From: Escherichia phage REP1
Sequence record: OQ174500.1
Length of the DNA stretch: 64,000 bases
Direction: 5' to 3' (one strand)
Shown: positions 54,680 through 60,693 of the stretch, piece by piece
How the letters are laid out: every line of letters begins with the position of its first letter
Numbering within the stretch: position 1 is the first letter of the stretch
The notes under the pieces: model-generated
What the model was told of the DNA's origin: nothing
Seen by the model: only the letters and a program-made list of their open reading frames with translations
Databases searched by the model: none
Translations under genes and position numbers: made by a program

Positions 54680-55336
54680 TTATTTAGCCCTTCCTAATAT
54701 TCTGGCCGCCTGGGCACATATTGATTCAAGGCGGTCATTACTTATATGATCATTTCTATACCAGTACATGGTTATCGTTCCAGCATAGATATTATCCAAA
54801 TTAAAATATGGACAACTGTACATGTAGTTTATTTCAGGAGTAGGCTTTTTAGTTGGTAAAAAAGCAAATTTTGAGTTGGAATAATAATGACGTCCATTTA
54901 AATGAACTGTATATTCATCCATAGTTTTATCAACAGGATATCCTCCAAGTGATTTTTCAGTTATTGTTGAAGGTAATCTTCCTTCGTATGCTATAATATC
55001 AACAAAATAGTTTAAGTTTTTAGGGCGGAAAGAATACACCGCACTAAAGTCTGCCTCAGATGATATATGAACTATCTGGAGTTGTTCCAGGGCGACAGAT
55101 TCAAAGCGTGCATTTCTTTCCTTTTCAATAATTTCACTGTATGTTTCATACTTTGATTGCTTATAGTACTCAAAGAAACTATCTCCCCTATACCAAACAA
55201 TCGCCATCATAAATAAAAGAATTACGACAGCTACCCGGGAAGCAAGAACCTTCCCGGTAGCGTTATCTTTGAACAAGCGATCTAGAACACCAAACAGAAT
55301 ATCAGAGGGCGAAAATGATATTCTAGGTGCTGCCAT
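54680..55336 (-). CDS. t: holin T
   Basis: 218 aa; single TM segment VAVVILLFMMAIVWY; matches T4 holin. Confidence 0.92.
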   Translation of the reverse strand: MAAPRISFSPSDILFGVLDRLFKDNATGKVLASRVAVVILLFMMAIVWYRGDSFFEYYKQSKYETYSEIIEKERNARFESVALEQLQIVHISSEADFSAVYSFRPKNLNYFVDIIAYEGRLPSTITEKSLGGYPVDKTMDEYTVHLNGRHYYSNSKFAFLPTKKPTPEINYMYSCPYFNLDNIYAGTITMYWYRNDHISNDRLESICAQAARILGRAK

Positions 55337-55367: not shown

Positions 55368-56153
55368 TTATACTCTTGAACCATATATTGTACCAACTTT
55401 AGTCCAAGATGGAGCATTACCAGTAACAGCTTTACCAGCAGCGCCGCCGTTATATTCTGATCCTTGACCGCGAATATTACATTTACCTCCTGCGGCACCG
55501 GCATCACCACCATTCCCGCCATTATAGATACCATTGACAGACCCTTTACCGGGCGCAGAAATAGTACCAGCAGTAGCACCCTGTTCCATATTAGCAGACC
55601 CACCAGCAGCACCAAATGGACGACCACCTCCACCGCCAAAAGTCAATCTCATTTGTGAAAAAGGAGAGTAGTATCCGCCGCCACCGCCGCCACCGCCACC
55701 TGCGATAACACCATTGTTATTAATACGTAATCTAGTTCCAATTCCGTTATTTATTGCAGTTCCTCCTGCTCCGCCAGCAGAGTTATTTCCACCATTCCCG
55801 CCGCGACCCCAAACATGCACGCCTGAATTGATATTAAGTGTCACGTATGCATTAGTTAATGAACTAGGAAAATCTAAGCAAGGTTGCCCAGCTGATGAAG
55901 AAACAATATTTCCTGTAATAGTAACAACAACAGGAGTACTACCTTGAGATTTGAGATAATTTATTAGCGTGTCTTTATTATATGAATTACTAGCGCCAAT
56001 ACTGTAATATACTTCTTTAGATTGCCCAGCCATTGAACTCATCCAACCGGGAACTGAAACACGAACTGCTCTCATCGCAGCATCCATCCAACGTTGTCCA
56101 GTTTCATTCACGGCAGATTCGCCAATCCAGCCAGGAACACCTACAATTGCCAT
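55368..56153 (-). CDS. 38: long tail fibre tip adhesin gp38 (T2/T6 type) with glycine-rich motifs
   Basis: 261 aa; several Gly-rich blocks (GGGGGGGGGYY, GGGGGRPFGAAGG, NGGNGGDAGAAGG) separating variable segments. Confidence 0.88.
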   Translation of the reverse strand: MAIVGVPGWIGESAVNETGQRWMDAAMRAVRVSVPGWMSSMAGQSKEVYYSIGASNSYNKDTLINYLKSQGSTPVVVTITGNIVSSSAGQPCLDFPSSLTNAYVTLNINSGVHVWGRGGNGGNNSAGGAGGTAINNGIGTRLRINNNGVIAGGGGGGGGGYYSPFSQMRLTFGGGGGRPFGAAGGSANMEQGATAGTISAPGKGSVNGIYNGGNGGDAGAAGGKCNIRGQGSEYNGGAAGKAVTGNAPSWTKVGTIYGSRV

Positions 56154-56161
56154 TAAAAATC

Positions 56162-56182
56162 CTTAGAGGGCCGAAGCCCTCT
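56162..56182 (-). promoter_or_regulatory. hairpin AGAGGGCTTCGGCCCTCT between genes 37 and 38 (attenuator or processing stem)
   Basis: GC hairpin in the 30-nt intergenic space on the - strand. Confidence 0.4.
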
Positions 56183-56183
56183 T

Positions 56184-59100
56184 TTACATAAGTTTAGATT
56201 CAAGTTCTTTTACACGAGAAGAAAGTGTTTTCACAGCTTCAACCAGAAGAGCAATCTGGGATTGAGAAGAAACAGTGAGTATTTTATTACCCTTAATATC
56301 TTCAACTTCACGAACTGCTTCTGGTAAAACATCTTGCAGTGTTTGAGCCACAATACCCGCTTCAGTTTGAACAATTTCACCGCCTATATAGTCAGCTTTA
56401 TCATAGATTAAACCATCAAGCTGTTCAACCTTTTCAAGAGCATTTTCAATAGGTCTGAAATTAGATTTCAAACGAATATCAGAACGAATATAAACGTTTG
56501 GGGCATTTATATTCATGTCAGAATAAGTGTCACCCGTTTGGAATCTCATTCGGCGTGCGGCATTAGTAATGATATCAAGAACTCCGTCAGCGGATTGTTT
56601 AATTCCGGTATCATTATCACCAAATGCTATACTATTTCCACCAAGTGCGTTATTGATATTAATACCAAATGAATTTGTTTGATTAATACCAGCTACAGTA
56701 GCATTATTTACTACAAAGCGGTTAGCTCCACCTGGAGTTTTTTCAAAGTAAGCAATATAGTTAGTTTCATCTGCAATTTCAATGCGGTTACCGCGAGAAG
56801 CATCACCAGCATGAAATATTCTCATATTTCTCGGGTTAGCACCAGACTTATCAAAGTTAATACTTCCATTATTTTTGATGTTAAGGCCATTATAAAACTC
56901 TGATACCCCAGAAACGCTCATAGAGTTTGAAATAGTTACTTTACCTGAATCGATATTGATAGAAAAAGGTCTCAAGCTATTATAAGAACCGGAGGCTTTA
57001 GTTTTATCAGTATCGGTATTTTTATCTGTTAATAATATATGGAACGTAGTACCATCATTATAAAACAGAGCAGCTGCAGAGCCACTTTCGTCGCCGTTAG
57101 ATTTGTGACGGAATCCTATAGTAGTATTTGCCACAAAAGTTGCATTTGTAGAAATATTAGAACTACCTGCATCAAAAACGCCTGAGCTATTATTAAGAAG
57201 TTTAAAAACACGACCTTTAACAGTATCTACAGGAAGCTCTTCTACTGGTGATTGTGTAGGCCCATATAATCCATGAACTACTACTGAAGCGTTTTCTGAA
57301 GTGCTATATTCTAATGTAAGTCTATTTAAATAAGTGCCACAATTAATATAAACATCATACTCATCGCCTGAGGTATTAATATACGCAATATCTTTAATAG
57401 CATCTGTTTCGCGTTGCCATAAAACACCATTAATTCCTTTAGGGCTGTTATTACCTGAACGCAATACAATTTCATTAATTGTTGCTTGTCTAAAAGTACC
57501 AACGTTAAATCCAGAACCACCAGTAATTTTAAATTGAACTGTAGCCACACCTTGAGGCATAGTTACTGTTGCCAATTTATACCAACCGCTATCGACAGAA
57601 TAATTAATCCAGCCGGTAGTTACTTTACGGTCTAAAGTAGTGTTTAAGTTAGCAAAATTACCAGAACCGTTGGTAATATTACCGTCAGTTCCTAGTTGGG
57701 CATTTCCGACTTTAAGAGGTTTACTGATTGACACGAAATTATCGCTTATAACAAGACCGTGTCCATAAGATTGACTATAAAGCGATAAATCACTTCCAGC
57801 GCCACCAAGACCAACATACCACGATCTAATTCCAGCTTTAGAACCTTGTAAATAATTAGCAGAAGAAGATGAAGGAGAATCTAGAGTAAGCGCTGCATTA
57901 CGTTCATTAATAGTTACTGGACATATCATTTTAATAGTTTTAAGACTATTACTTACTTGTAATAATCCTGTACCAGATCCAGAATCTCCTAAATGAACAT
58001 CATGCGACATTTTAACTGTGCCGGTGTTCAGTTCTATTATCAATGGTCTAAGATTACTTATACCGCCTGATTCTCCGGCACCTTTAGGAGTCGGGATAAT
58101 ATAAAGATTACTTTCCGAACGGCGGAAAATAGCACCATATTCAGCATTCCAAATTCTTAATGCATCAGCTGTTCCACCAATTTTTACCTGTCCAGTAATA
58201 GAAGAACCACCTTGGACAAACAAACCATTAGACATGGTAACATTGCCACCAAAAGAACCTGTACCAGAGGCACTTATATTTCCGAGCCCGACAATATGTC
58301 CAGTTTCGACAGTTCCGTTAAATTTAAAGTTAACCGGACCTACTGTTTGACCTGACGCAGGATTAGTACGTTGAGCGTAGAAATAATAACCTTGTGAATC
58401 TGAAACTTCGAATACAGTTTCTCTATTACCTGGAGTTGAGTTAAATGAGTTACCCCATGCTTTAATGGTTACAGTATTTTTATTCTGACCATTACGAGTG
58501 CCTGCATCCCAGTTAATGGTTTTTGTTCCGTCAACACCTGTAGGCGCTTTAAATGACAAAGCATTGGTATTGTCATCACCTGATAAAAATAACCCGGTAC
58601 GCATTGAAATACGTTGGGTTGAGTCAAATGTACCATCTGCTCTAATAGCAACTCTATTAGACCCAGTTTTAATATCTAAAATACCTGGCTCAACAAGAAG
58701 TCCATCGCCCATGTTAACAGACATACGACCCGTGCCACGGAAATAGTGATACATTTTAGAATTACTGCTATAACCGATATGAGTCTGACCGTCGCCGTTA
58801 TTATTATTACCATCAATATCGGTGCGTGCAGTAAACATTGCTTGGTTGTTATTTGGGAAATCCCAAGTAGAACCGGAATCTCGACTATAACCAACCATCA
58901 ATTTTTTAGTACTATTAATACCATTATTCAAAATGGTAGCGGATGAAATACCGTTAGCCATCAGGTCATAAACGCCATCACGGACCCATTTAATACCAGT
59001 ATCGTTATCGCCAATTGCAATACCAATGGAAATGGCAGACTCTAAAGGATAACGCCCATTTGTACCATTATCAGGAAGACCTACTGAAATAGATTTACCT

Positions 59101-59990
59101 GCGGTAATACGTCCAGAGGTATCAAACGCCCACTGGAAAGACGAAGGTCCTACGCCGGTCCACCAAGAAATTTCTTGCGGCTTTCCCGAACGACAGTCAA
59201 CTATTTCATGGAAAATGCTAGAAGTATTTGAAGCCCGCATTTTACGCATGTAGTTCAATCCGTTTGTATCACGGTCAGAACCATCTGCTGGTGGATTATA
59301 AATCCAAGTAGGTAAAGAAACAATGTCATAACCCGTGTCATTATTCGGTATAAAGGTTTTAGAACTCAGGTTAATATTTTTTGTATTGACGCGCGGTGCA
59401 GAAACAAATCCAGTTGCCGAGTTAATATTACCTGAAGCCGAAATATTACCTGCACGGACTTCAATACTGCCATTATCTACAATAAAACTACCGTTTCGAT
59501 TAAAAGTCCAATATTTTGAATCACCAGATTCATTGATATATTGAATTTTAAAACTTCCTTCATTTACTAACGTACCAACAGAAAAAGTTCCATCTTTATA
59601 GCGTTGTTTAATTAGCGGATGGTATTCTGAAGTAGAAGTAGTTGAACTCAAATCGGTAAAGATAGGAGCTTTATTTTTATGTTGGTTTGCCCAAGCACCA
59701 TTACCAGCAGTTTTAGGTAAAAATTCAATATATTTTCCTGCATAAACAAACTGGTTTCCATTAAGATTATATGTTCCATTTTGTAAATAATCACCAGTTT
59801 GAGTGATATTTCCACTGATATTACCGCCAGCGGAAATGCTTAAGTCAATGATATTTCCTGAATCATCTTTAGTAAAAATTGTTCTATCTTTTAAGTTTAT
59901 AGCCAATTCACCTTCGGCTAATACTGAAGCAGCAGGACGTGCACCTGCGATTTTGCTTCTTTTAAATTGTATTTGTTTTAAAGTAGCCAT
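56184..59990 (-). CDS. 37: long tail fibre distal subunit gp37 with C-terminal intramolecular chaperone-like domain
   Basis: 1268 aa; N-terminus and central blocks match T4 gp37; divergent C-terminal part ending ...ALLVEAVKTLSSRVKELESKLM. Confidence 0.92.
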   Translation of the reverse strand: MATLKQIQFKRSKIAGARPAASVLAEGELAINLKDRTIFTKDDSGNIIDLSISAGGNISGNITQTGDYLQNGTYNLNGNQFVYAGKYIEFLPKTAGNGAWANQHKNKAPIFTDLSSTTSTSEYHPLIKQRYKDGTFSVGTLVNEGSFKIQYINESGDSKYWTFNRNGSFIVDNGSIEVRAGNISASGNINSATGFVSAPRVNTKNINLSSKTFIPNNDTGYDIVSLPTWIYNPPADGSDRDTNGLNYMRKMRASNTSSIFHEIVDCRSGKPQEISWWTGVGPSSFQWAFDTSGRITAGKSISVGLPDNGTNGRYPLESAISIGIAIGDNDTGIKWVRDGVYDLMANGISSATILNNGINSTKKLMVGYSRDSGSTWDFPNNNQAMFTARTDIDGNNNNGDGQTHIGYSSNSKMYHYFRGTGRMSVNMGDGLLVEPGILDIKTGSNRVAIRADGTFDSTQRISMRTGLFLSGDDNTNALSFKAPTGVDGTKTINWDAGTRNGQNKNTVTIKAWGNSFNSTPGNRETVFEVSDSQGYYFYAQRTNPASGQTVGPVNFKFNGTVETGHIVGLGNISASGTGSFGGNVTMSNGLFVQGGSSITGQVKIGGTADALRIWNAEYGAIFRRSESNLYIIPTPKGAGESGGISNLRPLIIELNTGTVKMSHDVHLGDSGSGTGLLQVSNSLKTIKMICPVTINERNAALTLDSPSSSSANYLQGSKAGIRSWYVGLGGAGSDLSLYSQSYGHGLVISDNFVSISKPLKVGNAQLGTDGNITNGSGNFANLNTTLDRKVTTGWINYSVDSGWYKLATVTMPQGVATVQFKITGGSGFNVGTFRQATINEIVLRSGNNSPKGINGVLWQRETDAIKDIAYINTSGDEYDVYINCGTYLNRLTLEYSTSENASVVVHGLYGPTQSPVEELPVDTVKGRVFKLLNNSSGVFDAGSSNISTNATFVANTTIGFRHKSNGDESGSAAALFYNDGTTFHILLTDKNTDTDKTKASGSYNSLRPFSINIDSGKVTISNSMSVSGVSEFYNGLNIKNNGSINFDKSGANPRNMRIFHAGDASRGNRIEIADETNYIAYFEKTPGGANRFVVNNATVAGINQTNSFGININNALGGNSIAFGDNDTGIKQSADGVLDIITNAARRMRFQTGDTYSDMNINAPNVYIRSDIRLKSNFRPIENALEKVEQLDGLIYDKADYIGGEIVQTEAGIVAQTLQDVLPEAVREVEDIKGNKILTVSSQSQIALLVEAVKTLSSRVKELESKLM

Positions 59991-60685: not shown

Positions 60686-60693
60686 ATTTATAA
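60686..60693 (-). promoter_or_regulatory. late promoter TATAAATA for gene 36
   Basis: Reverse complement of tatttata; followed by AAGGGG SD and ATG. Confidence 0.65.

Follow-up and report, generated by a model that had tools for sequence, protein, structure and literature searches.

The gene 37-gene 38 locus of phage REP1

The window analysed here, a stretch of 64,000 nucleotides from Escherichia phage REP1 (sequence record OQ174500.1), contains on its minus strand a long ORF (56184..59990; 1268 aa plus stop) which, judging by its Pfam matches and its alignments to the T4, T2 and slur07 proteins, is gene 37 of a T4-type phage, encoding the distal subunit of the long tail fibre. Matches in gp37 comprise Gp34_trimer, gp37_trimer and Peptidase_S74, with both fibre trimerisation domains (PF21446 and PF20744) detected by Pfam, and the alignment with T4 gp37 (41% identity, E 2e-169) covers residues 1-787 only. 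Downstream on the same strand follow the genes for gp38 (55368..56153; 261 aa) and holin t (54680..55336). The segment 56184-56600 corresponds to gp37 residues 1131-1268 plus the stop codon, and the peptides quoted in the first-pass annotation, IENALEKVEQLDGLIYDKADY and ALLVEAVKTLSSRVKELESKLM, were found at the C-terminus of this 1268-aa minus-strand ORF. Two plus-strand ORFs in the same area (56527-56682, 51 aa; 56033-56191, 52 aa) were discarded as artefacts, given that they are short, antisense to the long gene 37 and without support.

Two copies of the motif I(A/G)(I/F)GDNDTGIK...DGV.D are present in gp37, at residues ~322-345 (59012 region of the window) and ~1119-1141 (56621 region), both on the minus strand. 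The motif is also carried by the gp37 tip of Salmonella phage S16 and seems to be a module that recurs in fibre proteins.

A C(UUCG)G stem-loop (56165..56182, minus strand; terminator-like, MFE -13.4 kcal/mol) separates the stop codon of gene 37 from the ribosome-binding site of gene 38. It starts one base past the gene 37 stop and consists of a perfect 7-bp stem closed by a UUCG tetraloop (AGAGGGC-UUCG-GCCCUCU), directly 3' of which is found AAGGAUUUUUAAUG of gene 38. The hairpin is identical in T2 and slur07, a similar GGGGCUUCGGCCC hairpin occupies the equivalent T4 position, and it looks like what we take to be the classic intercistronic C(UUCG)G hairpin of T4. Upstream of the locus, TATAAATA, presumably the T4 late-promoter consensus, is present at 60692 on the minus strand, about 700 nt before the gene 37 start, and is the sole such site on that strand between 54000 and 61000. 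Sigma-70 promoter-like matches within the C-terminal domain of gp37 were rejected, being weak (9/12) and internal to a gene that T4-type phages express late.

Gene 38 encodes a tail fibre adhesin of the T2/S16 type. Its product matches PF05268 (GP38) with 239 bits and the S16 gp38 chain 6F45_D with an E value of 3.8e-50; its N-terminal attachment domain (residues 1-42; 56028-56153, minus strand) matches PF21721 (Gp38_N) with 64.6 bits, and glycine-rich runs are apparent in its translation. The proposal of the first-pass annotation that REP1 possesses a T2-type system with gp38 as adhesin is borne out by these matches, according to which the fibre tip is of the T2 class; host range would therefore depend on gp38 rather than gp37. 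Several GenBank records, including OL960581, MN895435 and MH553563, give the T2-type gp38 gene the label "distal long tail fiber assembly catalyst", a role that belongs to the unrelated T4 gp38, and the slur07 gp37 is labelled "hypothetical protein". The "assembly catalyst" labels look like annotation carry-over rather than biology.

Conservation relative to T2 is concentrated where the two proteins would meet. In gp38, 44 of the first 45 residues are identical to T2 gp38 (residues 1-30 at 100%), and the variable C-terminal half is 33-53% identical; in gp37, the last 120 residues are 80-94% identical to T2 gp37, with about 30-60% outside the tail and 22-40% in several blocks. This is the pattern expected of a co-adapted, interacting cassette formed by the tail of gp37 and the N-terminus of gp38, and lock-and-key matching of these two ends has been described by Trojet et al. 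2011 (PMC3157838).

The closest relative of the locus is found in Escherichia phage slur07 (Tequatrovirus), with 93% DNA identity over the whole g37-g38 segment. The slur07 gp37 shows 96.5% amino acid identity overall; identity reaches 100% over residues 651-1268, which include the last 138, and drops to 78-86% in residues 151-250. In gp38, residues 1-90 are 100% identical and residues 151-240, which hold the hypervariable receptor-binding loops, only 56-70%. By these block identities the locus is mosaic relative to slur07 and, since the receptor-binding loops differ, the receptor specificity of REP1 probably differs as well.

The C-terminal Peptidase S74 domain of gp37

The last 99 residues of gp37 (1170-1268; 10.9 kDa; 56187..56483, minus strand) belong to the intramolecular chaperone (IMC) or Peptidase S74 family, as supported by Pfam, an AF2 model, Foldseek and identity to T2. 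PF13884 (Peptidase_S74, "chaperone of endosialidase") is matched by residues 1170-1227 along its full length (positions 1-58 of 58), with 52.1 bits against a curated gathering cut-off of 22 bits and an E value of 7.9e-14. The domain ends at the gp37 stop codon and occupies the extreme C-terminus of the fibre protein. The likeness to the chaperone domains of fibres and endosialidases, which the first-pass annotation had noticed and for which it had suggested a profile search, is far beyond chance considering the full-profile match, the catalytic dyad and the predicted fold.

In order to evaluate residue conservation, the last 168 residues of gp37 were aligned with 49 PF13884-bearing homologues (50 sequences in total) from a collection of 5.8 billion proteins, the matches from which were mostly short, fragmentary metagenomic proteins. 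Matches annotated "phage tail protein" from E. coli and Salmonella prophages, which lack PF13884 and cover 22-36% of the 168-aa query, were left out; these probably align to the GDNDTGIK region that precedes the cleavage site. Invariant columns are S1170, D1171, K1175, A1215, Q1216 and V1221-L-P-E1224, that is, a Ser-Lys dyad motif and an AQ...VLPE motif, both of which are typical of IMC domains. The dyad, in SDIRLK and with S-x4-K spacing, opens the domain: Ser1170 (56481..56483, minus strand) is predicted to act as nucleophile and to become the first residue of the fragment once released, and Lys1175 (56466..56468, minus strand) is the predicted general base.

Searches of the PDB with the 50-sequence profile retrieved S16 gp37 (6F45_A, E 1.2e-20), the tail fibre 8JOV (E 1.8e-13), the MyRF ICA domain (7DC3, E 7.5e-13), the IMC of the GA-1 neck appendage (3GUD, E 2.2e-5) and the tailspike 6EU4 (E 0.009); no match to this profile at E <= 0.01 was obtained for the IMC chains of the endosialidase (3GW6) and the T5 fibre. 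The profile was required for the 8JOV, 3GUD and 6EU4 matches; with a single sequence, phmmer found nothing beyond 6F45 and a weak match to 7DC3. The domain is common, 1541 phage records having a tblastn match to the 138-aa query.

An AF2 model of the last 168 residues, built on the alignment and representing as a monomer a domain that works as a trimer, is confident throughout 1170-1268 (pLDDT 90-97) and of low confidence just upstream of the cleavage site (pLDDT 44-55). In the modelled domain a small beta/alpha core leads into a terminal helix of 26 residues (1242-1267; 56190..56267, minus strand; model residues 142-167 of 168, pLDDT 94-97), which presumably forms the trimeric coiled coil at the end of the IMC. 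Foldseek comparison with the PDB recovered 7DC3 (E 4e-6, TM 0.60 by target), the endosialidase IMC 3GW6 (E 1.7e-3) and 3GUD as the sole matches with E < 0.2, the next having an E of 0.43; TM-scores are moderate (0.5-0.6 to 7DC3).

Predicted cleavage and maturation of the fibre tip

The scissile bond is predicted to lie between Arg1169 and Ser1170, in the motif NVYIR^SDIRLK. The deposited 3GUD chain, which is the released GA-1 IMC, starts with SDERHK and its first Ser is aligned with S1170, and the SDRRIK of S16 is aligned with SDIRLK at the cleavage motif. In 7DC3 an Ala takes the S1170 position (PADLRAK), from which we infer a deliberate Ser-to-Ala mutation intended to block cleavage. Release of the 10.9-kDa fragment would reduce gp37 in the virion from the 1268 aa of the precursor (computed mass, 136.0 kDa) to 1169 aa (125.1 kDa). 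For T2, a gel-based estimate from 1986 reportedly put the loss at about 120 residues, a little above the 99 that the motif predicts.

With this boundary the extent of the domain can be restated. A C-terminal domain is indeed present where the first-pass annotation had placed one of ~130 residues, but the removable part comprises 99 aa from Ser1170 onwards. Likewise, the range 56184-56600, given there with the strand unstated, does contain the domain, but its first 39 residues (1131-1169; nt 56484-56600) belong to the mature fibre tip, being upstream of the predicted cleavage site. The predicted docking tip for gp38 is made up of ~53 residues at the end of mature gp37 (1117-1169; 56484..56642, minus strand); it contains GDNDTGIK as well as the strand NVYIR and aligns to the S16 gp37 tip in 6F45_A.

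It is very probable that residues 1170-1268 act as an S74-type IMC that supports trimer nucleation, self-cleavage and gp38 docking as in the rest of the family. In REP1, three nascent gp37 chains would be set in register by their chaperone domains, the long C-terminal helices forming a trimeric bundle as the nucleus from which the trimeric fibre tip folds, starting at its C-terminal end. Once the trimer has folded, each chain would cut itself between Arg1169 and Ser1170, with Ser1170 as nucleophile and Lys1175 as base, and the 10.9-kDa fragments would depart. The NVYIR face exposed in this way could then bind the N-terminal domain of gp38, which would present its glycine-rich receptor-binding domain.

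A wider role is conceivable and, in our estimation, improbable: the fragment or the timing of its release could serve beyond folding, as a checkpoint gated by gp38 or gp57A, or the IMC and the gp38 attachment domain could together constitute a recombination unit for adhesin swaps. The latter idea is compatible with the cassette-like conservation relative to T2 (80-100%, compared with 30-60% elsewhere) and has been discussed in substance by Trojet et al. 2011 (PMC3157838).

Alternatively, cleavage at R1169-S1170 could be performed or gated by gp38, gp57A or a host protease instead of being purely autocatalytic. Assembly of T-even fibres depends on the general chaperone gp57A, and older T2 literature from the Henning laboratory is said to have tied gp38 to fibre maturation, both of which were counted for assisted cleavage. 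Full conservation of the family's own catalytic dyad nevertheless makes such assistance highly unlikely, as does the description of the S16, endosialidase, GA-1 and MyRF homologues as autoproteolytic (PMC7289586; PMC7917993); the Ala at the S1170 position of 7DC3, if it is indeed a cleavage-blocking mutation, argues in the same direction.

The domain could also be a degenerate chaperone that has lost self-cleavage and stays in the virion as a structural or receptor-binding tip, and some S74-bearing database proteins do lack the dyad. There is very little likelihood of this in REP1, where Ser and Lys are both present and invariant in the 50 homologues, the cleavage motif is that of T2, whose gp37 is reported to be processed (PMC3157838), an uncut IMC would block the S16-type docking surface for gp38 (PMC7917993), and an intact T2-type gp38 with an attachment domain 44/45 identical is encoded next door. 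Both alternatives are unlikely in view of the dyad's conservation and of what is described for T2 and S16, and self-cleavage by an S74-type IMC remains the preferred reading.

The S74 domain of gp37 is an ordinary, previously described part of T2-type long tail fibres, and its presence in REP1 is in that sense already known and adds nothing to the understanding of how IMC domains work. For annotation, its value lies in the predicted end of mature gp37 (...NAPNVYIR, 1169 aa, 125.1 kDa). For engineering, it marks the joints at which fibres and adhesins could be swapped without a mismatch between the chaperone, the cleavage site and the surface on which gp38 docks.

Comparison with T2, S16, endosialidase and T4

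The nearest known system is that of T2, whose gp37 (AP018813, 1341 aa) carries its S74 domain at residues 1243-1341 (Pfam match, 1243-1300). As in REP1, the domain stands at the end of gp37, and the two are nearly identical (86/99 residues, 87%); the cleavage motif NAPNVYIRSDIRLKSNF (NAPNVYIR^SDIRLKSNF) is identical, and the type of the downstream gp38 and the intergenic hairpin are shared. For T2 and T6, Trojet et al. 2011 (PMC3157838), citing Drexler, Riede & Henning 1986, describe proteolytic cleavage of the gp37 C-terminus followed by capping with gp38. The whole gp37 proteins, in contrast, are only about 54% identical, that of REP1 being 73 aa shorter, and the hypervariable segments of gp38 differ. 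These differences lie outside the chaperone domain, so none of them concerns it.

S16 (PDB 6F45, Dunne et al. 2018) has the SD-R-K motif at the cleavage site in common with REP1. Its IMC comprises the last 113 residues and cuts itself off at DLNVS^SDRRIKK once the trimer has formed (Salem et al. 2021, PMC7917993); according to the same source, citing Dunne 2018, this exposes the docking surface for gp38. The S16 domain is cut after Ser (DLNVS^SD), whereas the 99-aa domain of REP1 is predicted to be cut after Arg (NVYIR^SD), and the tip sequence upstream of the site has diverged. In other Tequatroviruses and fPS phages cleavage has been predicted at DVYIR^SDGRLKI (PMC7917993).

The K1F endosialidase endoNF (3GW6) belongs to the same family (PF13884; MEROPS Peptidase S74) and has the Ser-Lys dyad; its IMC is released after folding of the trimer, as reported in PMC7289586 (citing Schwarzer 2007 and Schulz 2010). 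There, however, the IMC sits on the end of a tailspike whose stalk is a triple beta-helix, and no separate adhesin covers the end of the mature protein.

T4 shares with REP1 the position of the gene and a homologous gp37 over the 787 N-terminal residues. The C-terminus of T4 gp37 consists instead of Collar and Phage_fiber repeats, without an S74 match in Pfam, confirming the earlier remark that the gp37 C-terminus is unlike that of T4; conversely, neither Collar nor Phage_fiber domains, which would mark a T4-type tip, were found by Pfam in REP1 gp37. The T4 gp38 (183 aa) is unrelated to the gp38 family of REP1, is annotated as an assembly factor and, as an intermolecular chaperone that folds the gp37 needle domain, is absent from the virion.
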